The position numbers and the translations under genes were made by a program. A DNA stretch of 62,211 nt, the filler included, from Collodictyon triciliatum (Eukaryota), in assembly GCA_043381765.1 (NCBI GenBank). It is 5 parts of 5 records of this genome, joined end to end, with 100 filler letters (N's around TTAATTAATTAA, not from the genome) between each part and the next. Parts side by side here need not be neighbours in the genome. Positions count along the whole stretch, not along the records: positions 15,840 to 31,061 come from JBHJMP010000462.1; 4 more parts are not named here. One strand, written 5' to 3'. The notes under the pieces are model-generated. The model worked only from the letters and a program-made list of their open reading frames with translations. It did no database searches and was not told the DNA's origin. This document shows, in pieces, positions 1,921-61,276 of the stretch (positions within the stretch are counted from its first letter, which is position 1; each line of letters begins with the position of its first letter).

Positions 1921-4900
1921 TCACTTTGATACGGAGAGTATTCTGAAACATCCCCGCCAGAGATAGGAAGAGCTACAAACAAAAGCAATAAGAATAAGAA
2001 ATACCGTCACATGATTAGTAGCATATAAGTAACGCAATGGCCTTTTTGAATTGATAAAAGGAAAAGAGAAAATACTTTCGATGGAGTAGTTTCGCGGAGT
2101 CTTGATTGCGTTGAAAATAAACTTTGGAACATATCTTTCGAAGGTGATTACAAAGTCTTTGATTTTCTGGCGACTAAGCGCAGTGGCCAAGGCGAATACA
2201 ACCAGATTAGAGATGGCAATCAGTATCACAAGGCTATCTCCAATTCGTTGAAGAGTTGCGACATATCCGATGAAAAAAGATAGGGTGATGGTGTATAGGC
2301 TAATCAATTCCAAGATGTTTTCTTCAGGATTTTGGAAAGGCTCATATATATGCTGCACCAATATGCTCAACTATTTGAATGAAGGAAATAAATATTTCTT
2401 GTTTGCTAAAATAAAATAAAACGGATAATTTGAATGGAAAATGATGTTGTAAAAGGGAAACTAAGTATATACAGATCTTATTGATAAAAGGGTTAAATAT
2501 ACTCAAGTCTTACTTGAAGTATGCAAAATATGATAACAGATAGCAATGAAGGGTTGGTATAGGGTATTGTTTGTATGGTGAAGGAGATCAAAAGTCTCCT
2601 TGCAAGTATAACCATTTCCCACCAGTAGTACTTCTGTTATTCGAATGATTAGCATGGCGTCTTCAAGGCGAGCAAAGGAGCGCACTGTATATATACATAT
2701 AAACAATACTTTTTTGTAGGGAAGGTAGAGGAATCCATAACGCCTTGTTTCTGCTTCATCTTTCTCTTGAAGATTGACGTTTTTGAGGATATAGTAAATT
2801 GCGATGGGCAATCCCATTATGTAAAAAACAAAAGCTATGAGCGATACAGCAAGGAGACTACTGTATTCTGCGGATGGAGTGGAACATTGAATCCACGGGA
2901 GTGTACTCAAATACCACTTATCGCTTCCCTTATCATACAAAGTGCATCCAAAGCTTCGAAAAACCTCCAGACCAACTCCGTAGTAATTTGAATGGAGAAA
3001 AAATATAGACAGAAAACATATCTAAGAGAATTTGTTTCAGTCTTCAGTATCTCATTTTAGTACTGTATCACAATTCCTTTTTTCTTTTATCATCATTTCA
3101 ATTACTACTATAATGGTGTCTAGTCGATGAGACGGAAAGTTTCTTACCTGATCGCGATACGGAATGTTTTCAGAAAGCGATGCATAAATGAATAAGAAAA
3201 CGAGAGCGACGCCAACGAGAAGCTTAAAAAGCATGAAAGAGTAGGTAGGGAACGACGTTGCGAGACATTCCTGTTTTAGAATCAAGGTGTTATAAGGTAT
3301 GCAGGATGAGGGGAAAATTCAAGATTAAGAAACCACTGATGCTTCAACAAAGAAAAAAAATGATACGTTGTATTTCAAAACTGAACGACTGATTAATGTA
3401 AATAAAATTAACAATTGAGGGAATCGATGCATTTGAAGGCGACGATGTTATATCAACTATTTGTGATAAGGCCTCTCCGAGGTCAAGTATATTTGTGGAC
3501 AATATGGACAAGGTTTGTAAATGAAACAAAACAATCTTGATTACACCTATATGAAAAATGGTCATGGATTGCGAGGAAGTATTTTTAAAATGAAATTTAT
3601 TAATTTATGATTACCAGTATCTGACGGAGGAGTGTTGATTAAATGGGAGACAAGTAGCACATAACCTATCACCATCATTACAATGACCATCACAACTAGG
3701 ACTTTATTGCACTTGACACAACGATTTCCTTGCACTTGATAATTTTCTGAACATTTAGAACAAAGTCTTTCCTAAAGAGAGAATGAAATTTAGATGTTTC
3801 AGCAATTTTTTTGGATTACATCAAGATGCAAAGAATAAACTTTGAATCGAATAAAGGAAAAAAATGCAAAGAATAGAACCAAAAATGTCACTATCTGATA
3901 TGTTTGCTGGTGGCTTCCAGTGCATATGTAAAAGAAGAAATAAATTTGATTCAGCAAACTTCATATCCATCGCTACAATAACTTTCAGCCGAGTTACTGA
4001 TATGGCATGCATCGTTGAATGGACACGTGATAATCTCTTTAATTTCATCATCTGAATCAAATGAAGGCCAGCAGTCATCCATTACAAATCCCCCAGGGCA
4101 GTTACAATCGTCTGGACAGGTTATACAATCGTTTCTTGCTCCAAAATATCCGGGAATACATCGGCAAAACTCATAAAAGTAGTAAGACGGGTCCATATCA
4201 ATTATACCGCTATTATTGAAAGCTGCGATAAGCGGGCAATTGAACTTTTGGTCCAGAGTGAACTGCTGGTATTGAGGCAAAACTTCAGCGAATGGAGGTA
4301 ATGCTTTTCCCTGCGGATAATCAGTTACCATCGAGTTATTGGTAATGTCTAACGTCTTTAACTTCGTAGCTAGAGCGTATGTATCAGGAAATGCACCAGT
4401 AAACATATTATTTGAGAAATCCATCGTGCTCATTCCTACTGGCAAATACTTTGGTAAAGACCCAGATATTTTGTTGAAACTAACATCAAAATAAAACAAA
4501 GGAATTTCTCCAAGTCCCTCGAATCTAGAAAACTGGTTATGCGACAGGTTCAAAATGATGAGTGATGTCAAATTCTCTACATTTTTGATTGAGCCTGTGA
4601 AATAATTTGAGCTGATATCTAATTTCGTTAAAAGAAGATTCTCTTCGAAAGAAGGCATATCGCCTTGAAATGAATTCGAAGCCACGTCCATAACTGTAAG
4701 AACTGGGCAATGGACAGGAGGAAAAACTCCCGTCAAGTTGTTTCCATCCATTTCTAGAACTTCCAACTTTGTCATGTTCAATAATGGCATGTTACCTGCA
4801 AACCTGTTCCCACTCAATTTGACTGTCCTTACATTTATTAAACTGTCAATCGCATCAATTGTGCCATTCATTTTATTATCTGACAGGTCAAATATGAGAA

Positions 4901-6320
4901 TGGTTGATTGCTGGAAGTTAGGTATTGTTCCTTCTAAAAAATTTCTTCCAATACTGATCTCTTCTATGAACGGATTTTCGTCGAAAGTATGCAGAGTACC
5001 TCGAAAGTTATTTTGTATGAGACCAAGTCCTCTAAGATTTGGCGAGTTTGGAAATTTTGGCAACATGTCATCTAGTTTGTTAACAGAAACATAAAGCCCA
5101 ATCAACAAGGGTGTATTATCGAAAGTGGGCAATGTTCCTTGAAGGTAGTTACCAGTGAATGAAATTGTTTTGATGAGTGGGATGTTTCTAAAATTAGGGA
5201 TTGTGCCTCCGATGATGTTGGTATCTGTGGCAAAGAAGTTCAGCAAAGGATAATCCATGTCTGCATCTGATTCATCAGTAATTCTGTTATATCGAATATT
5301 ATAAAATTCTAGGAGGGGACTCTCTATCATAGTAATAGATCCAATTAGTTTATTGCTCTCGAAACTGGCCAGCCTAATTTGAGTCGAATTGTAAAAAGAT
5401 GGTATTGTTCCTTCCAAGTAGTTTCTTGATAAAATTAAAAGGCTTAGATAACTCATATACTCAGATTCGGGTATTAAACCAGATAAATAATTTCGCTCTA
5501 GGTTTAGCACACGAATGTATGGAAGCTTGAAATTTGGTATTGTCCCAGTAATGTAATTGCTAGAAAAGTCTAAAAGTCGAAGAGTTGAAAAGAACTCAAG
5601 TGCATTTGCGACATCTGGGAGCTTTCCATGCAAATTGTTGCTATGTAGAGTGAGTGCGATAACCGCCTGACAAATGTTTTTTTTTAAAAAAAGAAAAATA
5701 CATAAGGAATTTGAAGAGATTATGTTTTCAAAACATACCGGACTTTGAAACCCTTGAAAGATACACACCACACCGAACCAGTCACAATAAGAAATAGACG
5801 TATTTCCCCAATTCGTCTGGACAAACCAATCTTCTCCACCAAGAGTCGTGTATATCATCATTAGATTTTCGTACGCGCTTGTAGTATTCTCTGTGTTATC
5901 ATTAGAATACACAGTGCTTCGTTGAATTATCATATCATCTTCATCGGGGAAGTTATTATTCCTATTGTCATTCTTTCTTTCATCCAAGTTTGTATACAAA
6001 CGAATGTCTTTGAACTCATCTAATTTACGAAAGAAAAGGATGCCAATGTAAGTTTGTGTGTCAATCATACTAATATTAATTGATAGGGCTTATTTTATTG
6101 GTTATCATAGAAGAGGGGACATAGAAAATACCTTCGAACATGTATGAAATAGCTTATATAAGTTTATTTTATGTGATAAGTTACCAAGGTTCCTTCTGCT
6201 GGGCTGAGAATCGCTTGGGCACGTTTCATAGAAGGTCTCAAGTAAAAGGCTGATGGCTTCTTCGCGAGATATGGACTCCAGTTTATCGACAGAAAGACTA
6301 CATACACTGGCTCCTTGACT

Positions 6321-9714: not shown

Positions 9715-9814
9715 NNNNNNNNNNNNNNNNNNNNNNNNNNNNNNNNNNNNNNNNNNNNTTAATTAATTAANNNNNNNNNNNNNNNNNNNNNNNNNNNNNN
9801 NNNNNNNNNNNNNN
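9715..9814. other. Artificial contig spacer N44-TTAATTAATTAA-N44
   Basis: Six-frame stop linker at 9759-9770 within Ns; genes on both sides are truncated. Confidence 0.95.
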
Positions 9815-13987: not shown

Positions 13988-15407
13988 ATGGCACTCAAGT
14001 TCAACTGGCCTGTGATTCAGTCATTGGAAGAAAACCTCATACACACACTGAATGAGAAACTGGCGGCAGTGGAGAAGCCAGACTTTATCGGGGATCTAGT
14101 GATTCAGGAGATATCGTTTGGTAATAAAGTTCCTGACGTAGAAATCTTGGATATAAAGCTGGTTTGTTTGATTGCGTACATGAACTATCTTTTAAAGTAG
14201 CGTATGGCACGGGTGCGAATATGCTTTTGTGACTCGAGTCAAATACATAAAAAAGCATGATTATTGTTATTTTGCATAAACATCTTTCCGTTAATTCGTA
14301 GCATAATCATGAAATTATATCGTGATAGGTTTTTAATTTCTCTTTCTTTCCTATTGTTGTTGTGTATTGTTGTACTTTCCTTTTGTCTTTAAATCTTTTT
14401 TGATGCCTTTATCCAGAATGAAGAAGCATCTGGAAACGGGGCTGGAAGTTACTCTTATGCACCTGGCCAAGCGGTAAATACCGGCAAAAAGTCTCGACAT
14501 GAACTTCTGACGGCCAAAAAAGCCATGGAGATTGGCATTCAAACCACTGTTCGTGTACTTTACAACGGAGACGCACGATTTAAAATAGCCACAGAGCTCC
14601 GTATCAACAAACCACTACCCAACTTTATTGTCTTCCCACTCACCTTGGCGGTGTTCAATTTCTCCTTCAATGGTATGTAGGATCTAGATTCCGCAACCCA
14701 AGATCAAGACGATCATATTATGCGCCCTTTTAATGGCTTTTTCGTAGTAGGTTCTGCGCAGACTTTTTTTTCCCTTATTCGAAGGTTCTGCGCAGACTTA
14801 TTATTGAAAGCACAAGAAAGAAAACAAACGAAATATTCATCATTAGTTCTAATTAATGCTTTGGTTTGAAATAGCACAACTTGAAATAATATCTACATCT
14901 TCTGCTATCGATATTATATGCAACACATTGCTAGGACAAAACAGTTCCCTAGGTAACTTACCAAAAAAATTTATATGGTTGAATTAGACTTAATTAGCAT
15001 CATATGATGAAGATGTGTAGTCAGTTCAGTTTTTTTTTCGAATCGCGCATAATGCAGACGATTATGCATCACTCAAGTGATACCTTACCCAAAAGAAACA
15101 TCTGATATTAATACTTTTTTTTTTTGAAAATATATCATAGCCTTTCTTTTCTCATCAATTTCATGTAGTTTCAGGCTAAACTTGATCTAATTCCAAGATT
15201 GTATTAGGCCCTGATATACTCAACTTCCGAGTACAAGCAGAACTTGGTGAAGATGGAGAGAAGCTGCCTCAGGGCGTGGAAAATATCGAGAAGTTTGTCC
15301 TTGAGCAACTGAAGCAAATTCTCACCAGCCGGTTCACAATACCTCTTAACAAGCCGACCCTCAAGATTTCATCAGACCCACCACTCCAGAAGATAGCCTC
15401 CTCTTAG
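13988..15407 (+). CDS. MDM12: ERMES SMP-domain subunit Mdm12-like, 4 exons
   Basis: MALKFNW...KPDFIGDLVIQEISFGNKVPDVEILDI; YNGDARFKIATELRINKPLPNFIVFPLTLAV; FRVQAELGEDG...VENIEKFVLEQLKQIL. No TM segment, which favours Mdm12 over Mmm1. Stop TAG at 15405-15407. Confidence 0.8.
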
Positions 15408-15496
15408 CTCAAATACGATACGCATCACGGTTGCAACACATTCTTTGATCTTGTTTCACCGCCTTATCATTTCCCCCGTAAACCTCCTCTTAACCA

Positions 15497-15627
15497 AAAC
15501 ATCAAAGCATCAAAATGTAAAAACATCAAAACATCAAAACATCAAAACATCAAAACATCAAAACATCAAAACATCAAAACATCAAAACATCAAAACATCA
15601 AAACATCAAAACATCAAAACATCAAAA
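15497..15627. repeat. (AAAACATC)n octamer tandem repeat downstream of MDM12
   Basis: About 16 units, near perfect. Confidence 0.95.
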
Positions 15628-15739
15628 TGTAAAAGATGAACAAAACGACCAACACGGTCCAAATAATTGGGTCTGTTTGTGCAGTTTGATTTATTAGACT
15701 TTCAGTTAGCATCTGGCGCATGAGTTGTTGAACAGAAAA

Positions 15740-15839
15740 NNNNNNNNNNNNNNNNNNNNNNNNNNNNNNNNNNNNNNNNNNNNTTAATTAATTAANNNNN
15801 NNNNNNNNNNNNNNNNNNNNNNNNNNNNNNNNNNNNNNN
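15740..15839. other. Artificial contig spacer with TTAATTAATTAA (15784-15795)
   Basis: Same 100-nt spacer design as at 9715. Confidence 0.95.
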
Positions 15840-16307
15840 TTTTCTTTTTCTTGTTTCTTTTTTTGTTTCTTTTTTTGTTTCTTTTTTGTTTCTTTTTTTG
15901 TTTCTTTTTTTATTTCTTTTTTATTTCTTTTTTATTTCTTTTTTTATTTCTTTTTTGTTTCTTTTTTGTTTCTTTTTTGTTTCTTTTTGTTTCTTTTTTG
16001 TTTCTTTTCTTGTTTCTTTTCTTGTTTCTTTTCTTGTTTCTTTTTCTTTTCATTACAAAAAAATTGCCAATGCGAAAATTTTTCATTTTTTTTTTGTTTA
16101 TATTGAACTGGCAACTTGTTTTGCATGTAAATTTTAGGACTTGGTTTGGAGGACAATGGCTCTGTGATATTCATTCGGACTTGTATATTGGTCGATAGGG
16201 TACGAACATGACACTAATATCTTATCACATCAAAAAGGAAAAGTTGCATTCTACACTATGCATTATGTATTTTTCCTGTTAAAATATCAATTAAACCATA
16301 CTTTTAG

Positions 16308-19300
16308 ATGAAGAGCATACGAAACGAATCCAAGGGAAAACGATTCAAAAAGTGGTTACCAGCACCCCGAAAATATATGACCTCTAAGCCACTTGACTTA
16401 ATCATATATGACGAACGCGTTATTCGCATATTTTTGTCCTCTACCTTCCGGGATATGCAGAATGAAAGAGACCAATTTTTCCAACACGGGGCTGTAGAGT
16501 AAATACTTCACATGGTTGAAATTATCATTTCATCTCATACTCTAAACTGTCAACATGTTGATATAGGTTGAAAAAAATAGCCAAATCGAATGGGTTTGAG
16601 CTCGTTTTTATTGATTTACGATGGGGGCTTACGTCGAAAGATAGTAATGAGGGCTGGGTAAACGCACGATTATTTTTCTTGAGAAGCCGTTGCGGTGTTT
16701 CTGAACTATTTGAAACATGTAAGGTTGTTATTCGATGCCTGGACTCTATATCCAAATGCCCATATTTTGTGTGTTCCCTGGGCGCACGCTACGGATGGAT
16801 ACCAGATCAGAGGAAGACTGAGCTCAATATATCGGAGAGGCTCATTGAACTCCAGAAGGAGAAGCATAACGCAACTGTTGATGATATATTCATAGAATGG
16901 AGAGCAGAGACTACGATTCGATTTCCTTTCATTGAGCTCATCCCGGGGCTGAGTGTCACCGAATATGAAGTATTTTTGATCAAATTACCTCCTATTTAAT
17001 ATTATACAGGTCATCCCCAGAACCGAATCTTAATACTGAACATAATTCGCACACATAGATCCAGTTTGCTGCCTTAATATCCAAACCGGCATGCAGCAGG
17101 GTTTTCTTTTATTTCAGAGATACTGAATTTGCCCTATCAAACGCGAAATCTGATGCCGAAAGGATATTGTTTCAAGCAGAGAATGAAGAATCCGTACGTT
17201 TCAGAGGGCGCCATTAGCTTTGCCACTTTTTTTTTCAAAAAATAAATTGCCATACTGCACTAACTAATGCTATTTGATTTTTTAGAGGAAGAGGCAAGAA
17301 AACCTAAAGGATAGAATCAAGAAAATGTACGGCTACGTCACGTATCAAAGACCAAAAGATTTTTCTGACCTTGTGGCGTACCACTTGGCTTGTGCATTCA
17401 AGAAGGATTTCTCTAACATAGTTGTAATTATTTTTATTTTATGGTTATGATAATTATTATGATTCTATTGATATTCATATACTTTTTCATGGGAATTCTT
17501 GATATTTCTATTTATCCATTTGAAGTTACATCTGAATTATAATTGCAAAGGAGAGAGATCCTGAAGACCAAGCCCAACACCAATTTATGATGCACAGACT
17601 TACCGGATTTGCTGGACGCCAGGATCTCATCAGAACCTTAAATGAGAAGGTATGAGGTTCTCATTCAATATTCCGACATAATTGAGTTGATTCAGGTGTT
17701 TTTTAAGAAAAAGTACATATCATATAAATCCTTTGACATGTGCATCATACATGCCAAGATTTGGTCCCGTTTGATGGGCTATTCCTCAAATGTTCTTGTC
17801 TTGGCTGCCCCCTCCGGCATTGGAAAATCGTCTCTAATAGCAGCTACAATAAAGCGACTTTCTGATTTGAATATTCCTGAATTAAAAACAATTTATCACT
17901 TTGTCAGCTGTACAAGCGCTAGTAACTACTTGGAATGGTAGATTCGTAATATTCAAACATCGGATACTAGTGTTTTTATCCAATATATCTAAATATCATC
18001 ACTGATTCAATATGTACACATTTATGTAAAGTATATCTTCAAGATTCTGGAAATTGGCTTTGAGCATTCTTGGGATAGTGAATGATTCAGATGGGGAAAC
18101 CTTGGGTATTTGCGCTACATAAAAATAATCTGATTTTCAATCAGGAGATAGTGATTAATTATGCATTAACCGATAACAAAATTCCTGAATAGAAAATGAG
18201 AAAAGCAGCCTACATGGACTCTTCAATATGATCGAAAAACAAGAGATGTACTTGAATATTTAACATACGAATTACCCACTTTATAATTAAACATATTCTA
18301 AAAGCATACTCATTAGGGTACAGAAAATTGTTTTCATAATTGATGCGGTCAATCAAATTCTGCCTTCTAAAGAAAACCCAGCTCCTCATTTGCTGAAATG
18401 GATGCCGAAAGTAACACCTAAAAACACTGCGCTTGTCGTATCTACTATTGACTCCCACCCGTCATATCAGGTTCGCACTTCAATAATAATCAACGATATG
18501 AATTAGCACATACACGCGTTTGGAAAAAAAATATTTTCTTGCTAACGAATATTTTTTTGCCTATAATGTATTGCAGTCAATAATTAAATGTGGGTCGGAT
18601 GTCGTTCCGATATGTGGCCTCAGCTTAGATGAGATTAGAGAGAGCACAGAGATATATCTCCAACGATTTGATAAAACAATGAGTGAAAAGCAAATGAGAT
18701 TGATTTTGGAGGACTCAAAAGATACAGGTTACATGTTGATGTTATAGCCGACTTTCCCTTTATTTTTTCCTGCCAAAAAATCAACCAAAAGATAACTAAT
18801 TGAAAACCAGTAAATTATTTAAAATGAAAAACTAAAGTTTATAATTTAATTTACTATGTGAAAATTGCTTACTAATCCACGAATTATTTCCGTCCAATTT
18901 TATTAAAATTATCTTTTCGTAAAACCGGCCAGCCCATCCACTTTATTTGAGAGTTGTTTTGGATGAGATACGAATTTATGGTGTCTACGAAAGAATTGAA
19001 TCAGAACTCAGCTGCTTATTAATGACCAATGGTGTTGTAGAACTTTTCTCATTAGTCATAAAGCGATGGCAGGAAAAGTACAATAGGGAAGGTAGAGCCA
19101 AAAGAACAAACACATAACCAGATAAGGATATTTTGTTGTTTTGGATTAACCCATGTCAAAACTTCCCTTTTTTTATTATTATTTTATTTTCACAATCCTG
19201 TCTTTTGGTACCCACATTTAGATTGCGCGATAGTGGACTCTTCCATGAAGGTTTTGTTCGTTTCGAGGATTGGATTGAGTGAACGAGATCTGGATAACTA

Positions 19301-22300
19301 TTTAGAGTTTGTTCTTGGGAATAATTTTGATGTTTCTGAATGGTATAGATAGTTCATCCAAAATAAACATCCCGATAAAAATATGTGCAATAGAGTTTAA
19401 TTTTGCGGTAGCTACTCATCAACAGTTCTGATAGCACCATTTTTTAAAATAAAGGAAATCATTCTTTTTCACCCTGATCGAGTCTCTCTTCGTGAGAAAT
19501 GGAAGGTTTTTTTTTATCATTTTTTCGAAAGAGATTGCCCGCGCTATTGTAGTATTCCTTTTGATAAAATTCTGTCGATCCATATTCTTTGAAAAACTTC
19601 CATGCTGTAATTAGATACATGTTTTTTCATCTTCTCCTTCTGGAGGCAACCGGTGGTTACTTCTTCCCTGATAAGGAAAGCAAGGCTGAGACCCATAGCA
19701 CTTATGGAAAGTGGCTTCTTAGCAATTACTCGGAATCTACTGATGTAGAGGAAGAAACAGCTGCGGAAATTTGTTTTCAGCTCCTTTCTGGAGAAAACTA
19801 TGAGCTATTGGTGGAATATTTAAAGCAGGAGCACGTAATAAATTTTACATGATTTTTTAATTTGTACGCTCCTTTTTTTTTCTTTACAAATGTGATATTA
19901 TACATAAACCTGATGAAGTATGCTAAATATTTTTAAAAAACTTTGTTAATTTTCCGAGGCAATATTACTCTAGCATTGGAATGATTTCATCCACTCTCCT
20001 GATTATTTAACACGAGGTTAGGTTGTTGTACTTATGCTCAACAGTCGCTACCGATACGAATTTTTCAAATGCTGGAGAATAATCAACGAGAAGAAAGTGG
20101 ATGATTATAGAGCCGTGTACAAAGATTATGCTAGAGTATAACGATTTCTATAAAGGATTACTACAAACGTACCTTTTTTTTTTTTTTTACCTCTCCTCTT
20201 TCAACTAACGGAACATTCAGTCATTGAAAAAAATAGGAGACATACTCGTAGAATTCTTTTTTGAAAACCATGAAAATTCCTATTTGGTTCCAGTTTTACT
20301 ACAACGATGCTCCAAAAAGAAATCAGAAGGTTTTACATCGATTTCAAAAACTTTCGGCATCCTATTCTATATTTCATTCAGTAGAAATGTATTTTCTAAC
20401 AAAAAGTACAACTTTAGAATCAAAACTTGCCGATTATCTTACATTGGGTCGAATCTACAAAAATATGCAAAAGTATAACCACTGTAATAGTTACTAAAAA
20501 AAAAAAATTCAATACAAACATCGAAACGATAATATGATTGTAATCAAACTAATCAATATATCTTGTGCTGCAGTTGGAGAGAGGCCAACATCTACTTTGG
20601 AAAATGCCTTGCAATCAGGGAGCAATATAAAATTCAAAATCAGGATAGCCTCTCTTTTTTATATGATGAAATTGGGTGTATCTATCAGTATGAAAATAGG
20701 TTAGGGCTCATATATTACAATTCCATTTAATTTTTCTTAGTTTAAGTTGGTTAGAAAAACTTTGGAATGAATGCCAGGACTTTATTCCTGTAGAATCGAA
20801 GAGGCATTGTCAGAATACAAAAAATCGTATGATCTTCGTATGAAACTTGGCCATGAAAGTGAATTACCCATCGCTGTTTCTTTTGATCGATTCGGTGATA
20901 TATATTTGAAAAGAAAAATGTAATTTGCTACAAATTTAAAACATATCTATGCTTTTGTTATACATGCCCCATGAGATTCTTTTCCATCCATAAGTGTAAA
21001 CTTTGCTTTAGGTATGATGCAGCAATCTCAGAATATCAGAAAGGAATGGACATCCGGACCAAGGAAGTTGGTCCTGAACATCCCCTCGTTGCTCTATCTC
21101 TTCAAAATATTGGACAAGTATTTCTTGAACAGAGGAGGTTAAAAAATTGAATTGGATTGGTTGAATTTTAAACTTTACTTATTCTTTCGAGTAATAATCG
21201 ATTTCTATGTAGTTTTGAAGATTCAAGATTTTACCATGATAAGGCAATTTTGATTTTGGAGAAATCATTCGGAAAGAAGCACCCCTCAGTCGCAGAGGCA
21301 CTCTTGCTCATCTCAAAATTACATTTAGCTGACCAAATGTATTAGATTTTACAATTGTTTTTTTTTCCTTTATTCGATTCAAAGTAGATTTTACAATTGT
21401 AATGCAAAATATGGTGTGTGTATGAAAAAAATTCAATAAGGGGTGGAAAAGAAGATAGAATATGATGATATACTCTAATTATCTTGGAAATTTATTACTT
21501 GATAGGTACAACACCAGCGTACCTTTGCTTGTTGATGCAATTGCAATATTCATTGAAACCATTGGCGAAATTCATCCCAGAGTTGCTGAATGCTATGAAT
21601 TACTTGGAAATATTTATCATGGACAAAAAGAGTATGTCTTTATTTAGAGCCTCGAAAAAGAAATTTAATAAAACTAGTATTATTTTTTAAAAAGTTATCA
21701 AGCTTCCCTGGCTGCATTCATCAGAACTATGGAAATTAAAAAAATCATTCTTGGTAACAAGCATCCTGATTATGCCGCTTCTGTAGAAGATGTTGGTCGA
21801 ACTTATTTTGAAATTCAAAGGTGACAATTAGTTAATAGATATTTTTCTCTTATTTCTCTTTTTCTTTTTCTTTTTCTTTTTTTCTTTTTTCTTTTTCTTT
21901 TTTCTTTTCTTTTTTCTTTTCTTTTTTCTTTTCTTTTTTCTTTTTCTTTTTTCTTTTTCTTTTTTCTTTTTCTTTTTTCTTTTTTCTTTTTTCTTTTTTC
22001 TTTTTTCTTTTTTCTTTTTTCTTTTTTCTTTTTTCNNNNNNNNNNNNNNNNNNNNNNNNNNNNNNNNNNNNNNNNNNNNNNNNNNNNNNNNNNNNNNNNN
22101 NNNNNNNNNNNNNNNNNNNNNNNNNNNNNNNNNNNTTTTCTCTTTTTTTTTTCTCTTTTTTTTTCTCTTTTTTTTCTCTTTTTTCTCTTTTTTCTCTTTT
22201 TTCTCTTTTTTCTCTTTTTTTCTCTTTTTTTCTCTTTTCTTCTCTTTTTTTCTCTTTTTTTCTCTTTTTTCTCTTTTTTCTCTTTTTTCTCTTTTTTTCT

Positions 22301-24688
22301 CTTTTTTTCTCTTTTTTTCTCTTTTTTCTCTTTTTTTATCTCTTTTTTCTTTTTCTTTTTCTTTTTCTTTTTCTCGTGTTTACACGTAATGCTGCCTATT
22401 ATCGTGCACACTCGAAAATAGATATGTCTCATACCAATACATTATTAGCCTGCAATATTCATATATTTCCTCTGTATGATGTTTAAATATCATTTGGTAT
22501 ATAGCTTCACTCATGCAGTCAGCAGTTTTCAAGAAGCAACAATCATAAGAGAGGAGACAAAGACTTTAACATCAATGGCAGATACCAATCAAATTGAAAA
22601 CATCCTTCGACTTCTTACAGAAAAGAATATATTTAACCCAGCACTTGTTTTATACAAGTCTCTGATTGAGCATTTCAAGATTAAAAACTCTTTGAATTAC
22701 CATGGTGTTTGGAATTCTTGTGAAAAAATTAATGCTATTTATGATAGAAATCAGATGCACGACGAAGCCATATCATTTTGGGTGGAAATGAGGGATCAAT
22801 TTACAGAGAAACTTGGATTGACTCATCCAAGAACTCTTAATTCGTGTGAATATCTGTCATATCACTCTAAGAAAATAAATGTAAATATGGAACCTATTCA
22901 ATTTACTTGCGTACAAAAATTTATCGCTGAACATGTACATGATGCGGATGTGGATGTTGGCTGGTCTGAAGAGAAAACAACTGCGGGCTTATTCAAAATA
23001 GTATATATGTCAAGGAGAAACGAATCAAAGGCAAAAGCTGCGTCTTACGCAATTACCTTTCTTAATTTCATGGACCAATCATTCTTTGGAATGGACTTAT
23101 CCAACATTCAAATACAAAATGCAAACCTTTGTAACTCAAACATTGATGGAACTAACTTCATCGGCGCAAACTTGAGCGGAGTTAACTTTGCAGACGCATA
23201 CCTTGGGGACTGTGTTTTCAACAACGCTATCATGGATGGTGTGAAGTTCGGGTTGCGCAGAAAAGAACTCAAAGGCCACAGAAATCACGTTTTCAAGATT
23301 TGTGAACTTCCAGGGCCCAAAGGAGAAAACTGGGTGGCAACTTGCGGTTATGACAAGACTATTCGCGTGTGGGATTTAGTTGTTGGGAAGGAAATAAAGT
23401 TACTAGAGGGCCATGAGGACTATGTTATAGCTATTGTATGTACGGAAGGACCCAACGGAGATTATTGGTTGCTGTCTGGAGGTGGTGACAGAGTTGTCAT
23501 TGTGTGGGACTTAATATCTGGGAATGAAATAAAAAGGCTAGATGGGCACGCAAACACGATATATTGTCTAGCAATTATTCAGGGACCTGGTGGTGAAAAA
23601 TGGCTCGCCTCCGGAAGTGGAGACAACACTATTCGAATCTGGGATATGGCCAACTTTTGTCATATCAAGACACTTAGAGGACACTTAGATTATGTTAGAA
23701 GCGTATGTGCCGTAATTAGGCCCGATGGAAGTCCGTGGCTAGCCTCTGGAGGCGATGATTCTGTTATTAACATATGGGATATGTCAACCTCTGAACGGCC
23801 TCATGAATTAAAAGGCCATTCTGCAAGTGTCACATGCCTTTGTACCCTGAACAAACCTGACGGGGAAGCCCTATTGGTCTCAGGAAGCAGTGATAGGACA
23901 ATACGTATTTGGAATCTAGAGACGCAAAGCCAGATTTTAAAGCTGGAAGGCCATACAAACTACATATGGAGCATATGCACCATCGCAGGACCGCATGGAG
24001 AAAATTGGTTGGCGTCTGGGAGCAGCGACAAGACAGTTTGTATATGGGACCTTACTAATGGGAATCAAGTTAAAGTTTTGAAAGGGCATATCGATGGTGT
24101 TTGGAGTGTTTGTAATGTGCGCATGCGACATGGAGATATCTGGTTGGTGTCTGCAGGTAACGACGGTGTCATTCGCTTATGGGATATCTTCAACGATGAG
24201 CAGACAATATTAAATCAGGAACTTAGGCAAAGGATGAAAAGTGTGGATGAATCGGTTGCAAGTGAAAGTTCAGAGGTGCAATCTACAAGAAGGATCACAA
24301 AGACATACTCTAGTAGAGTAGAATGTGGCCATGTGCAAATCCGAAGCACTGTGGGTTTGAGTTGGTATGACAAGATGCTTCTGCTTTCGATTGGAGCTGT
24401 TTCATTCGACAGTGACTTCATTGCGTACTGTGAATCTGGAGAACTGACCGGGTTTCAAATAGACATGGTCATAAAATGCTACGAGAATGGATGGGGTGTT
24501 GGGATTGACCTGGAGAAGGCAGCGTACTGGGCCAAGAGGAAACAGCTCCTGGTATGCATTTTGCTACGCAGCAAGACAGAACTAAGCTATTTATTTCTAT
24601 ATATATGAATGGAATACGGGAATGGATATTCATAGGCGCCGACATTTTAATTGACTTGAACATTTTGCAGGGATCCAGTGAAGGCTGA
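16308..24688 (+). CDS. NLR-like STAND protein: DUF4062 - NACHT-type P-loop NTPase - TPR array - pentapeptide repeats - 7x WD40 - SEL1-like tail (more than 20 exons; true start and last exon uncertain)
   Basis: DUF4062 motifs IRIFLSSTFRDMQNERD, FIDLRWG, LGARYGWIP and LSVTEYEI. Walker A APSGIGKSSL and Walker B VFIIDAVNQ, then HPLYLRVVLDEIRIYG. TPRs of the GxxHPxVA type. Pentapeptide tract AASYAITFL...MDLSNIQIQNANLCNSNIDGTNFIGANLSGVNFADAYL. Seven GH...WD/WN repeats. Tail CYENGWGVGIDLEKAAYW. Confidence 0.88.
21855..22375. repeat. (TTTTTC)-type polypyrimidine tract with 100-N gap (22036-22135), in the intron between the TPR exons and the WD40 exon
   Basis: Low-complexity T/C tract on both sides of the gap. 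Confidence 0.95.
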
Positions 24689-25274
24689 CGAGAAAAGAAA
24701 AGCATCACCGCTGCTGTTGGCTGCGGACTCTGCTGCGCGGCAATCCCAAAAGCAAAAAGATAACAACCGCATGACCAGGAACTAAAATAAATCAGTTTTT
24801 TTGAAAAGCCTGACTTCACGAAATACTTTAAATGAGTGTGCTGTAGTGTCTGCTCCAAATATATTGGCCCATCGTTCAATAGGGAAGACAATGTTTCGAC
24901 GCAGCAGCAAATGAAAGAGAGGAAAGATAAGCGCAGGAGGTTTTTGTAGCACAGACGCTTGTTCATCTAATTGTGGAAAATAAATATAAATATATAATTT
25001 ATTGAATTGAACATGAGTTTTGTACTAGATACTATATTTTGCACTTAAAATTATAGTATTATATGTTTAGAGATACCCATGTTTATAAATATTCAAACCT
25101 GAATCTTTGTCCTTGAGAATCAACCACTATGCGCGATAGCAACCCATCTTTCTCGCTTGGCTGCTGTTGCAGTGGAATCGAGTCTGTCTCAAAGCAAAAG
25201 TAACGCTGTTTCAACAGCAAAGCGTAGGAGAGCAGCAACACAGGAATCTTCGGACCAAGAGAGAGCCTTGAGCT

Positions 25275-30869
<5,595 letters not shown>

Positions 30870-30967: not shown

Positions 30968-31258
30968 TATTTTATTTTATTTTATTTTATTTTATTTTAT
31001 TTTATTTTATTTTATTTTATTTTATTTTATTTTATTTTATTTTATTTTATTTTATTTTATTNNNNNNNNNNNNNNNNNNNNNNNNNNNNNNNNNNNNNNN
31101 NNNNNTTAATTAATTAANNNNNNNNNNNNNNNNNNNNNNNNNNNNNNNNNNNNNNNNNNNNAGTGAAAGAGTAAAAGAGTAAAAGAGTAAAAGAGTAAAA
31201 GAGTAAAAGAGTAAAAGAGTAAAAGAGTAAAAGAGTAAAAGAGTAAAAGAGTAAAAGA
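30968..31258. repeat. (TTTTA)n and (AAAAGAGT)n microsatellites flanking the contig spacer 31062-31161
   Basis: Tandem units either side of N-TTAATTAATTAA-N (linker at 31106-31117). Confidence 0.95.
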
Positions 31259-52135: not shown

Positions 52136-52235
52136 NNNNNNNNNNNNNNNNNNNNNNNNNNNNNNNNNNNNNNNNNNNNTTAATTAATTAANNNNNNNNN
52201 NNNNNNNNNNNNNNNNNNNNNNNNNNNNNNNNNNN
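52136..52235. other. Artificial contig spacer with TTAATTAATTAA (52180-52191)
   Basis: Same 100-nt spacer design. Confidence 0.95.
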
Positions 52236-58951: not shown

Positions 58952-61084
58952 TTACCTATTTTCTCTCCAATTGAGGTCGTAATTGTGCGTTGATGAGGTG
59001 TTTCCGTGGGTTCCATAGTTTGCTTTTGAATTACCGCCTTTGCTTCGATTCCCTGAACTGCCGCTTTGGCTCCCAGTCGGCGCTTGGCTTCCATTCGGCT
59101 TGGGCTGAGACTTTGGACTCACCGGTGACCTGCGCGTTTCGGTTGTGGTTGCTTCCCTGGGCGATTTTGAATCTGATGGTGGATTTGTAGCCATCTCTGT
59201 CTTTTGTTTGGAAGTTGCATCGCGCGGAGAGGTTTGATGGGAGTCTTTCAGAGCGGCTGCGTCCCCTCGAGGTGTCTCTATTTCACGCGAAGGTGGTTCA
59301 GGAACAGATTCCACCGCACTTTCCTTCTTCAAACTGCTTGTTGCAGTTACGGGAGAGCTCTCTGGGGTGCTCAGCTTTATAAATACCATGCGCACGCCTT
59401 GTCGAGATTGATTATTGATTTTTTGTGAGCCCGGCGTGTTTGGAGACTTTGGAGGCAGACTAGAACTGGGTGTTGTAGGCTTTTGATTCGTCGTCGGAAT
59501 ATGCGGTTCGAGTTTTGTCTCCGGTTTGCCCGGCTGCTTGTCCACTTGCTTGGGGTCTGGGGTTCGGGGTTGGGGGTTAACTTTTGTTTCAGACCTACCT
59601 GTTTGCACCGGTGGCTCGACAGGAGGGGTGACTGATTGCCGTGACGGCTGTGAAGTTTGCTGGGGTTGACTTTTGATCGTTTCCTTCGTCTCTGTCTTTG
59701 CTGGTTGAGGTTGTGGGGTTGTCTGTTGGGATGAGGATAGCACCGTAGCTTGCACCTGCAGTTGTGGCTGTGGCTGTGGCTGTTGCACGTTGCTTTCAGT
59801 GCTGGCTTGTGGCTGTGTTAAAGTAGCGGGGGTTGACGGAACGATTGCATTTGGTGTCGTCGTTTGCTTCTGAGGCTGTACGCCAAAAAAGTATGTGACT
59901 GCTCTCTGGGCATAAAAGATGTAGTCGGGATGAGCCGAAAAGTTTAACCGAGTCCACAACTCTTTCACTCGAGTGATGTTTGGATCGAAAGGCACTTTGC
60001 ATTCCTGGAGACTCCATGTCGATGGCCAGATTTCATAGGGATAATACCCCAACAACGGGATGAATTTCCATGTAAAGCTTGGCCCGTATCCCTGACTCGT
60101 CGGGGAATCGGACAAAGCGTGAATACCTGTATTGCCAAAGAGCTCTGGGCTTTGTTTTAGCCTATCCAGGTTAGGGTGATTTCGTGGGACAAACTCTTCA
60201 TAGGGTGGGAAGGCTGCGTCTCGAAGAAAATCAGAGGTCGGGTTGGATAGGTGATGAAAGGTCAAGAACTGGCCGCGGATATATGGTGTTGTGTGATGGT
60301 GGCACAAAATAGGGAACCATAGTACAGAGAACCACGAGTCTGGGTGGATGTCATCACTGGATCCATGAAGAAGAGCCTTCAAAGCTGCACGTGGTGATGG
60401 GAGAGAGTTTGATTCCTCGCCAAAATTCTGGTTTCCTTGGCCTTCTTCGGTGGAGGCCAGATGCATGATTTGTTCATAAAGAGGTCGTCTCATATTCGGC
60501 TGTGTGTTTTCGAGAAACTCATACCAGACAAGTGGGGCATTTTCCTTGCGCTCCTGCCTCTGTGAAGCCTCATCTGATGAGCCTACCAAAGAATTGGAAC
60601 CGGATGCTGCCTGGGCGTAAGTCTTGCGAGAAGCTTGGGAGGAGTTTGCAGACGGCACGTTTCCACGCGCGGCTGCGATGTGTGTTGGGTAAAAGATTTG
60701 CATGGCAGACAAGTAAGGCACAAAGTATGTGTGAACTTTGACGTTTTCGAGGAGCATCGGCACTTCAAAGCCATACGGCCGATCATAGAAGCACCAGACA
60801 TCCGATAGAAGAAAGGCATTTATGGATGGGCTGTTTTCATGGAGCCCTGCACTGAGCGGCTCTGCATTGTCGACTGCGTTATCGCCCGTAGTTGAGTGGC
60901 TGGTCTCTGCTGGTTGCGGAGGAATTCCAGAGTCTTGTGCTTTCGGCTTCCGATTAGTCCGCCAGTCAAAGGAGCGAACCGTAGGTGTGGTGTGGAACAG
61001 AAACTGATCGAGATTGGTCGGATGAGTTTGCTGCGTCGGTGGGTTTGGCAGATCGGTGCTCGGGGAGGCAAGGTTTGCTTGCAT
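58952..61084 (-). CDS. DUF789-family protein with long Gln/Pro/Thr/Ser-rich C-terminal tail; single uninterrupted ORF
   Basis: TNLDQFLFHTTPTV; FLLSDVW...YGFEVPMLL...YFVPYLSAMQIF; YEFLENTQPNMRRPLYEQI; SDDIHPDSWFSVLWFPI; FLTFHHLS; HPDYIFY. First ATG at 61082-61084; an upstream exon cannot be excluded. Confidence 0.85.
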   Translation of the reverse strand: MQANLASPSTDLPNPPTQQTHPTNLDQFLFHTTPTVRSFDWRTNRKPKAQDSGIPPQPAETSHSTTGDNAVDNAEPLSAGLHENSPSINAFLLSDVWCFYDRPYGFEVPMLLENVKVHTYFVPYLSAMQIFYPTHIAAARGNVPSANSSQASRKTYAQAASGSNSLVGSSDEASQRQERKENAPLVWYEFLENTQPNMRRPLYEQIMHLASTEEGQGNQNFGEESNSLPSPRAALKALLHGSSDDIHPDSWFSVLWFPILCHHHTTPYIRGQFLTFHHLSNPTSDFLRDAAFPPYEEFVPRNHPNLDRLKQSPELFGNTGIHALSDSPTSQGYGPSFTWKFIPLLGYYPYEIWPSTWSLQECKVPFDPNITRVKELWTRLNFSAHPDYIFYAQRAVTYFFGVQPQKQTTTPNAIVPSTPATLTQPQASTESNVQQPQPQPQLQVQATVLSSSQQTTPQPQPAKTETKETIKSQPQQTSQPSRQSVTPPVEPPVQTGRSETKVNPQPRTPDPKQVDKQPGKPETKLEPHIPTTNQKPTTPSSSLPPKSPNTPGSQKINNQSRQGVRMVFIKLSTPESSPVTATSSLKKESAVESVPEPPSREIETPRGDAAALKDSHQTSPRDATSKQKTEMATNPPSDSKSPREATTTETRRSPVSPKSQPKPNGSQAPTGSQSGSSGNRSKGGNSKANYGTHGNTSSTHNYDLNWRENR

Positions 61085-61276
61085 CGTGGGGGACAACAGA
61101 GCCTTGTTTTCTGCGCTGGGAAAAGGAGTTTTTTTTTTTATTTCTTTCTTTTCTCTTTCTGAATAGTTCTTTCCTCAAGCTATTCACAAAAAGGGGTGAT
61201 TTTCCTGCAAGTTACAGTATGTTTGAATCTGTTTTGTTTCTACTTTCTGGTCGCCCCTTTCCTTTTTTTTTTTTCT

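Follow-up and report, generated by a model that had tools for sequence, protein, structure and literature searches.

A gene lies on the plus strand at positions 16308–24688 of a stretch of 62,211 nucleotides (hereafter the window) from Collodictyon triciliatum (GenBank assembly GCA_043381765.1), within the part taken from JBHJMP010000462.1. The spliced model has 26 exons with 5163 coding nt open throughout, giving 1720 codons, and 25 of the 25 introns are GT..AG, with sizes of 63–205 nt except intron 24, which contains an assembly gap and measures 684 nt as assembled. The scaffold has a low GC content (about 35%) and numerous gaps. The inferred protein, to which residue numbers refer unless P0001 (the numbering of the exon 25 part) is stated, shows the order NIR (DUF4062), a NACHT module of the TEP1/NPHP3 type, nine 42-residue TPR units and a C-terminal cassette. 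The cassette consists of two helices with a pentapeptide beta-helix, seven WD40 blades, a beta cap and one Sel1-like repeat. The anatomy, the status as a single gene and the membership in a family of like proteins are, taken together, close to certain.

The NIR domain (residues ~35–221) is encoded by exons 1–4 (16308–16498, 16567–16657, 16724–16969 and 17059–17193), as seen from Pfam, from RNA joints over introns 2–4 and from alignment. Pfam DUF4062 (PF13271) scores 21.1 bits on the open reading frame (ORF) 16308–16499 and 25.1 bits on 16562–16996, with a cut-off of 24.7; a local DUF4062 hidden Markov model was built with the window's own sequence included and is not independent. Each of the core motifs can be aligned to TEP1 and to DUF4062-NACHT-TPR proteins. 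In the MAFFT alignment R48, R116 and E176, found in the motifs SSTFRDM, RYGW and SVTEYE, correspond to R908, R976 and E1008 of TEP1. SVTEYE is located at 16952–16969, and the codon of E176, which aligns with the catalytic glutamate of TEP1, at 16967–16969. The TEP1 reference was that of Mus caroli (P0297; R915, R983 and E1015), and the offset of 7 to the human protein was inferred from the spacing between the two arginines. Exon 3 gave no meaningful match to PDB sequences with phmmer (best E 0.7), and the related protein P0271 is listed with PF13271 among its precomputed domains. In 2026 preprints DUF4062 is renamed NIR and shown to act as a TIR-like NADase, both in human TEP1 and in the defence systems of bacteria. 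They name E1008 as the catalytic residue and place R908 and R976 in the active site too; E1008 and its bacterial equivalents are needed for NADase activity, and NIR sits N-terminally in many eukaryotic NLR-like proteins. The NIR head of the window protein may be an active NADase.

Exons 5–16 (17286–20135) encode a linker and the NACHT module with its helical and winged-helix parts, as placed by Pfam fragments, phmmer and RNA joints. Exon 7 starts at 17759, which agrees with the homolog alignment and with an RNA contig end at 17756 whose 14 unplaced letters fit the acceptor 17758|17759. Fragments of Pfam NPHP3_N and NACHT are found on 17642–17938 and 18291–18503 with 18.0 and 17.5 bits. The Walker A motif GIGKS (P-loop) is located at 17816–17830 and Walker B, FIIDAVNQ, in exon 10 (18317–18470). 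A phmmer search with the NACHT region finds P0123 at 1.8e-145 and P0271 at 2.2e-137, and P0123 in turn retrieves DUF4062-NACHT-TPR proteins and TEP1, which with the Walker motifs places the module in the TEP1/NPHP3 clade. An earlier note on this DNA, made from the sequence alone, had described the 5' part as of the NPHP3/TEP1/NWD kind, and indeed its nearest pentapeptide-free relatives are DUF4062-NACHT-TPR proteins and animal TEP1.

The TPR array starts in exons 17–24 (20221–21820), as judged by the gene model, TPR_12 and colinearity with the homologs. TPR_12 (PF13424) scores 32.7 bits on the ORF 20899–21147 (cut-off 30.1). Exons 19–24 (20574–20699, 20794–20919, 21012–21137, 21213–21338, 21506–21631 and 21695–21820) are 126 nt each, corresponding to one 42-residue unit per exon, and every one of them ends in phase 2. 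These six units are followed by about three degenerate ones in the first part of exon 25 (22505–22874, P0001 1–123). When a family profile of this linker was used as query, hhalign placed its first ~120 residues on the TPR units of the gene with a probability of 88.5% and E 2.7e-6, columns 1–119 on 1–119, and AlphaFold2 predicts six paired helices at P0001 2–123.

Intron 24 (21821–22504) separates the regular units from the degenerate ones, and includes 100 N at 22036–22135 within a T/C-rich microsatellite. The donor GT is at 21821 and the acceptor AG at 22503–22504, giving the splice CAA AG|C TTC, and exon 25 is entered with the same phase and at the same position in the TPR repeat as in the five preceding TPR introns. 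In blastp the window protein aligns with P0123 in one high-scoring segment pair (HSP) that spans the junction, residues 5–1615 on 344–2024 with 42.6% identity, and with P0271 residues 2–1615 on 282–1917 with 37.0% identity. A three-way alignment of these proteins has no indel at the junction, residue 1032/1033. The TPR region is 473 residues long in the window protein, 471 in P0123, 468 in P0271 and 470 in both P0272 and P0126; this equal length in five members leaves no place for a further exon in the gap. Since exon 25 starts with degenerate TPR units, TPR, pentapeptide and WD40 parts are in any case joined within one exon, and the colinear full-length homologs of the same layout indicate a true fusion that was in place before this genome took shape. 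The phase-consistent splice that completes a TPR, as proposed in the earlier note, is therefore borne out by phase, repeat register and colinearity alike, and so is its proposal that the 5' part and the cassette form one fused gene, given the open spliced model and the single HSP with P0123.

The 2047-nt exon 25 (22505–24551) is present as had been described, and both the string LFKIVYMSRR..AASYAITFL and the string MDGVKFG occur in its translation. The AlphaFold2 model of the exon, with a mean predicted local distance difference test (pLDDT) score of 85.2, consists of TPR hairpins, a beta-helix, seven blades and a helical tail. The head of the cassette (22968–23255, P0001 155–250) contains the two helices and the beta-helix, the latter modelled with one-residue strands at a spacing of five residues over P0001 197–250. 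Pfam Pentapeptide (PF00805) scores 56.3 bits on 22506–23270 (E 2.3e-15, cut-off 20.2), and the ESM Atlas returned one pentapeptide cluster with a score of 0.76, which is a lead only. The propeller follows at 23265–24185 (P0001 254–560), covered by RNA, with seven stretches of WD40 (PF00400) summing to 183.6 bits and a predicted 28 strands of pLDDT mostly above 90. The top Foldseek match is the seven-bladed propeller 5yzv_B with a target-normalised TM-score of 0.88. Pentapeptide repeats followed by seven WD40 repeats, as claimed earlier, are thus found.

The tail (24321–24551) has a short beta cap and four helices with one Sel1-like repeat, helices being predicted at P0001 620–681. It is recognized by a weak Sel1 match and by the homologs, being common to the window protein, P0272, P0124, P0123, P0126, P0271, P0125 and P0221, and in P0221 it runs on as four Sel1-like repeats. 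The SEL1-like tail of the earlier note therefore exists, but Sel1 (PF08238) gives just 15.7 bits (E 0.023) where the cut-off is 30.7, and the repeat is best described as Sel1-like in sequence and, by Pfam score, as no member of the Sel1 family. Intron 25 (24552–24670) leads to the last exon (24671–24688), which encodes GSSEG and a stop.

RNA evidence was taken from contigs of three runs (X1, X2 and X3) placed on 16200–24800, and the runs were regarded as cDNA because the contigs carry spliced GT..AG joints. Eight of the 25 introns, numbers 2, 3, 4, 5, 7, 8, 9 and 25, are seen as such joints in X1 and X3, the last of them in both runs. The contigs reveal the intron 16658–16723 and the exon 18193–18247, and contigs of X1 span 23065–24550; the gene is transcribed. 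The loose ends of X1 and X3 contigs are presumably SMART template-switch oligo. Two further joints, 20197>21358 in X3 (CT..TG, with 40 other letters between) and 20194>21354 in X2, are situated on T-runs and were rejected; we take them as foreign transcripts that match low-complexity sequence.

The layout is repeated in other proteins. A HMMER scan of the block against 1.84 billion representatives, together with a word-indexed search, returned P0123 (2619 aa), P0271 (2401 aa), P0272, P0124, P0126 and P0133, where P0123 and P0271 have it at full length and the other four in part. Four of these, P0123, P0271, P0272 and P0124, come from EukProt as Trinity ORFs. A protein search with P0001 1–270 gave one weak match, and with the whole of P0001 mostly generic WD40 proteins. 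The number of blades varies, as the WD40 region of P0123 extends over ~900 residues, judged from repeated tblastn matches. By its sequence the window protein is a member of a small family that is known from protist transcriptome assemblies and unlabelled contigs only. In the literature searched nothing combines DUF4062 with pentapeptide repeats, and the papers on NACHT with pentapeptide and WD40, or on pentapeptide repeat, WD40, TPR and NLR, concern bacterial systems. The supplementary tables of the NIR preprints may already list such proteins. With that scope, a family of this layout is previously undescribed. Some members have further parts: the C-terminus of P0272 carries extra domains, with PF06701 (MIB/HERC2) in the precomputed list, the TPR-like linker is present twice in P0124 (residues 208–498), and residues 1–343 of P0123 and 1–281 of P0271 are N-terminal extensions, which may be calponin-homology-like.

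These extensions bear on the 5' end of the model. The two homologs reach ~280–340 residues further N-terminally than the window protein, and a spacer of the contig-join type, N44-TTAATTAATTAA-N44, is located at 15740–15839, 470 nt upstream of the ATG of the model, so that the 5' end is to be read as open, and the first exon or exons of the gene may be missing from the model. When the whole window was searched for the N-terminal extension of the homologs, matches stayed at chance level apart from the start of exon 1, the sole one with E <= 0.01. Spacers of this form occur four times in the window (9715–9814, 15740–15839, 31062–31161 and 52136–52235) and are presumably six-frame stop spacers for joining contigs, and the order and orientation of the sequence across these joins may be arbitrary. 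The six 100-N gaps of the window, unlike the spacers, are located in microsatellites.

The block itself is usually found in another context. In a set of 32 proteins that carry the block, a Mortierella-type NACHT immediately precedes it in 20, six have a NACHT of the window type, these being the family members, and six are fragments or have neither. Mortierella alpina P0316 has a classical NACHT followed by the pentapeptide-WD40 block, which the window block matches at 6e-10 in phmmer, and Paramecium P0077 was matched, with pentapeptide and WD40 parts. A bacterial scan of one genome per prokaryote species, made with the pattern AAANAIT[IL]L, yielded 78 loci, 49 titled Mycoavidus, 1 Glomeribacter, 9 of one gammaproteobacterial metagenome-assembled genome (MAG), 3 Tatlockia and 1 Coxiellaceae, the rest being 10 of other proteobacterial MAGs, 3 Myxococcota, 1 Bdellovibrionales and 1 Bacteroidetes; this taxon spread is biased because the scan used that single pattern. 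In the 34 translated loci a Mortierella-type NACHT is present in 27 and WD40 in 31, and NIR, a NACHT of the window type and the tail of the cassette are each found in none. The statement that the block normally stands behind a different NACHT type accordingly holds for both collections, Mortierella and Mycoavidus included. According to two published accounts, Mortierellomycota gained NACHT-PPR-WD40 receptors from Mycoavidus (10.1101/2021.12.02.471044) and fungal NACHT homologs are found in fungal endosymbionts (Kibby et al.). The nine loci L039, L047, L054, L058, L060, L063, L065, L066 and L075 are all on one record, the MAG chromosome OZ257148.1, which has at least 9 NACHT-pentapeptide-WD40 loci, an expansion comparable to that in Mycoavidus.

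A tree of the ~100-residue block (65 rows, with few columns and many open forks) unites the nine family rows (92/74; 93% of 200 bootstrap trees), eight of them at 98/88, and places P0221 and L036 next to them at 97/95. Mortierella falls inside the Mycoavidus/Glomeribacter clade at 100/98, which matches the published transfer. Two possibilities raised by the earlier note find no support here. The block is not nested among endosymbiont proteins, as the family groups with P0221 and L036, away from Mycoavidus, Glomeribacter and Mortierella, and a capture peculiar to this genome disagrees with the whole layout recurring in independent Trinity transcripts and with the family blocks forming one group. 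The locus L036:2-2650 is a contig of 2.65 kb assigned to a Bacteroidetes MAG, with a classical NACHT and the block; among named records its block is the closest to that of the window (E 1e-28), and it shows 32% identity to P0221 over 926 columns. The contig could be eukaryotic and mis-binned, or it could come from a genuine relative among bacteria.

The linker before the block resembles the family and TPR arrays only, not the classical-NACHT proteins, and its TPR-like nature puts the fusion point inside exon 25, ~140 residues behind the exon start. The boundary of the exon is therefore no mark of a captured piece, lying within the TPR array and ~140 residues before the cassette. Exon 25 is intron-free over its 2047 nt against 24 introns in the preceding 3098 coding nt, which has P ~3e-6 under uniform placement; this agrees with a piece without introns having been attached to the former last exon, and could also be due to later intron loss. 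GC at third codon positions is 0.437 in the cassette and 0.395 in the 5' exons and gives no signal of origin.

The explanation that we favour, and think rather likely as a whole, is that of an intact STAND/NLR-like gene of an old fusion family working as an NADase switch. Its evolutionary part, a single old fusion at the origin of the family, appears very probable from the sequences compared. A DUF4062-NACHT-TPR gene would have acquired the entire cassette, i.e. helices, pentapeptide, WD40 and Sel1-like tail, behind its last TPR units, with a classical-NACHT protein like P0221 or P0125 as the donor. As it took place before the family members diverged, the fusion is neither a recent capture nor a scaffolding artefact. 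By analogy to APAF-1, TEP1 and the bacterial Avs/NACHT proteins, the C-terminal repeats should be folded back onto the NACHT in the resting state. A ligand on the WD40 and/or TPR surfaces might then lead to nucleotide exchange and oligomerisation, by which the NIR domains would be gathered and NAD+ hydrolysis switched on. For NADase activity together with a role in immunity or cell death, which is drawn from the same analogy, we see about even chances. Instead of being a second sensor, the TPR array could just as well serve as a spacer or an autoinhibitory arm. That helices-pentapeptide-WD40-(Sel1) is a portable cassette swapped between unrelated STAND NTPases, on a classical NACHT in bacteria, fungi and protists and on a TEP1-type NACHT here, with the NIR head of this family under two independent ligand-binding arrays, is a tentative idea that we think less likely than not. 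If true, the protein would be a two-input NLR with the cassette stacked behind an existing TPR sensor.

Several observations weigh against this explanation. Neither the NACHT pieces nor Sel1 reach the curated Pfam cut-offs, as is expected for NACHT when single-exon pieces are scored. The contigs of X1–X3 do not cover 21653–23064, and the junction 21820|22505 is unseen in them. Seventeen of the 25 introns are placed by homology and open frame, and the X3 contigs 20340–20594 and 20586–20944 retain introns 18 and 19 and extend into intron 20; these are pre-mRNA or DNA carry-over. One of the two starts beside an internal A-run at 20488–20499, which suggests oligo-dT priming on pre-mRNA. In the block tree the family group has 92/74, unstarred, with P0271 on a long branch. 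The half trees made for congruence have 6 and 8 rows and are poorly resolved: the N-half tree pairs the window protein with P0271 (98/96) and the block tree with P0272 (89/69), which on 6 rows is neither congruence nor firm conflict. As P0125, P0221, P0126 and P0133 have no taxon label and L036 is in a MAG, the donor may have been eukaryotic or bacterial. On the functional side, full-length human NWD1, NWD2 and NPHP3 are reported without NADase activity in vitro in the 2026 preprints, so that a conserved glutamate is no guarantee of activity.

These points have to be weighed together with three other explanations. Had the scaffold been misjoined at the N gap, or were there two adjacent genes, one for DUF4062-NACHT-TPR and one for pentapeptide-WD40, then a 100-N gap in an intron with unlike repeat motifs on its two sides, a junction without RNA cover and a scaffold with many gaps and four contig-join spacers would all be expected. 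However, a single colinear HSP runs through the junction with P0123, P0271, P0272 and P0126, phase and repeat register are identical to those of the other TPR introns, and exon 25 opens with half a TPR unit without any ATG-led start upstream, the half unit in which P0013 also begins; we consider this explanation hardly tenable. A recent capture of the pentapeptide-WD40 part, private to the lineage and by retroposition or transfer from an endosymbiont, would account for the long exon without introns and for the abundance of block relatives in intracellular bacteria (Mycoavidus, Glomeribacter, Tatlockia and Coxiellaceae), and the position of Mortierella in the Mycoavidus/Glomeribacter clade indicates that such transfers occur. 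It is nevertheless very improbable. The complete layout in P0123 and P0271 at just 37–43% identity implies that the fusion is old, the block of the family goes with P0221 and L036 and with no named endosymbiont clade, and the Sel1-like tail is found in none of the 34 sampled bacterial ORFs. The third-position GC of the cassette is near that of the 5' exons, the intron-free exon begins within the TPR array and not at the boundary of the cassette, and the bacterial taxon spread is biased by the search pattern.

The third explanation accepts the same gene, but sees in its product a STAND protein with a scaffold or housekeeping role, in which NIR would mediate protein-protein interaction, as proposed for some animal TIR/NIR proteins. 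It agrees with the inactivity of human NWD1, NWD2 and NPHP3 as NADases in the 2026 preprints, with a family that is colinear and moderately conserved (37–43% over ~1600 residues), unlike a hypervariable receptor, and with the N-terminal extensions and the MIB/HERC2 domain of P0272, which suggest cytoskeletal or ubiquitin contexts. The catalytic glutamate and both arginines are kept, though, and the number of WD40 blades differs widely among members, from 7 here to the long region of P0123, as is usual for sensor arrays; we regard the scaffold role as unlikely, yet worth keeping in mind, and retain the NADase switch as the preferred explanation.

Elsewhere in the window, an open frame of 712 codons at 3951–6089 on the minus strand has leucine-rich-repeat (LRR)-like units followed by a Cys-rich stretch and resembles a receptor-type LRR protein. 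A tandem repeat reading (KTSKHQNI)n lies in an open frame at 15397–15639 (+), just upstream of the contig join. An exon-sized open frame at 28395–28943 (+) ends in a stretch that may correspond to the first part of the AAA+ box in the replication factor C large subunit. The sole GC-richer region of the window (~47% vs 35%) holds, at 58952–61174 on the minus strand, an open frame of 740 codons with much Pro, Gln, Thr and Ser.

The family opens no new class of system, and is of interest for the evolution of NLRs and for NAD-based immunity. Its re-used cassette makes domain-swap experiments and ligand hunts concrete. Its 5' part is most like the NIR(DUF4062)-NACHT-TPR proteins (TTC41/NPHP3-like; P0273–P0277), which share the SSTFRDM, DLRWG, RYGW and S(V/I)TExE motifs, the NACHT clade and a C-terminal array of 42-residue TPR_12 units. 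Unlike the window protein they end after the TPR, without pentapeptide, WD40 or Sel1, and they are 24–25% identical to P0123. The vault/telomerase protein TEP1 also has NIR followed by NACHT and WD40, with the equivalents of R908, R976 and E1008 kept, and P0123 matches animal TEP1 at E 1e-31 to 1e-13. TEP1 differs in having TROVE and vWA in front and many more WD40 repeats, and in lacking the TPR array and the pentapeptide block.

The cassette, in contrast, is like the corresponding part of the NACHT-PPR-WD40 receptors of Mortierellomycota, Mycoavidus and Glomeribacter (architecture as given in 10.1101/2021.12.02.471044) and of like proteins in other bacteria, which share the AAxNAITxL helices, the pentapeptide part ending in xFG and the WD40 repeats. 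In these receptors another NACHT type abuts the block and there is neither NIR nor TPR; the tail is absent from the sampled bacterial ORFs and the window block is outside their clade. The window protein falls outside this receptor family, as NACHT queries from Mortierella and P0125 do not match its NACHT, which lies ~460 residues before the block. P0221 and P0125 have the same beta cap and Sel1-like tail, and the blocks of P0221 and L036 are the nearest ones (97/95), but these two proteins have the Mortierella-type NACHT without NIR or TPR array. APAF-1 and the bacterial Avs/bNACHT proteins correspond in overall plan, with an N-terminal effector, a STAND NTPase and autoinhibiting or sensing C-terminal repeats, and it is by analogy to them that the window protein is assigned its putative function; they belong to other NTPase clades with other effectors and sensors. 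The effector of PsAvs2 is described as a NIR domain (2026 preprints). Compared with all of these, the family is a compact, transcribed case in which a putatively active NIR head is combined with a TEP1-type NACHT and three successive types of repeat, and where a pentapeptide-WD40 cassette known from gene exchange between fungi and their endosymbionts appears re-used on a second, unrelated NTPase chassis.

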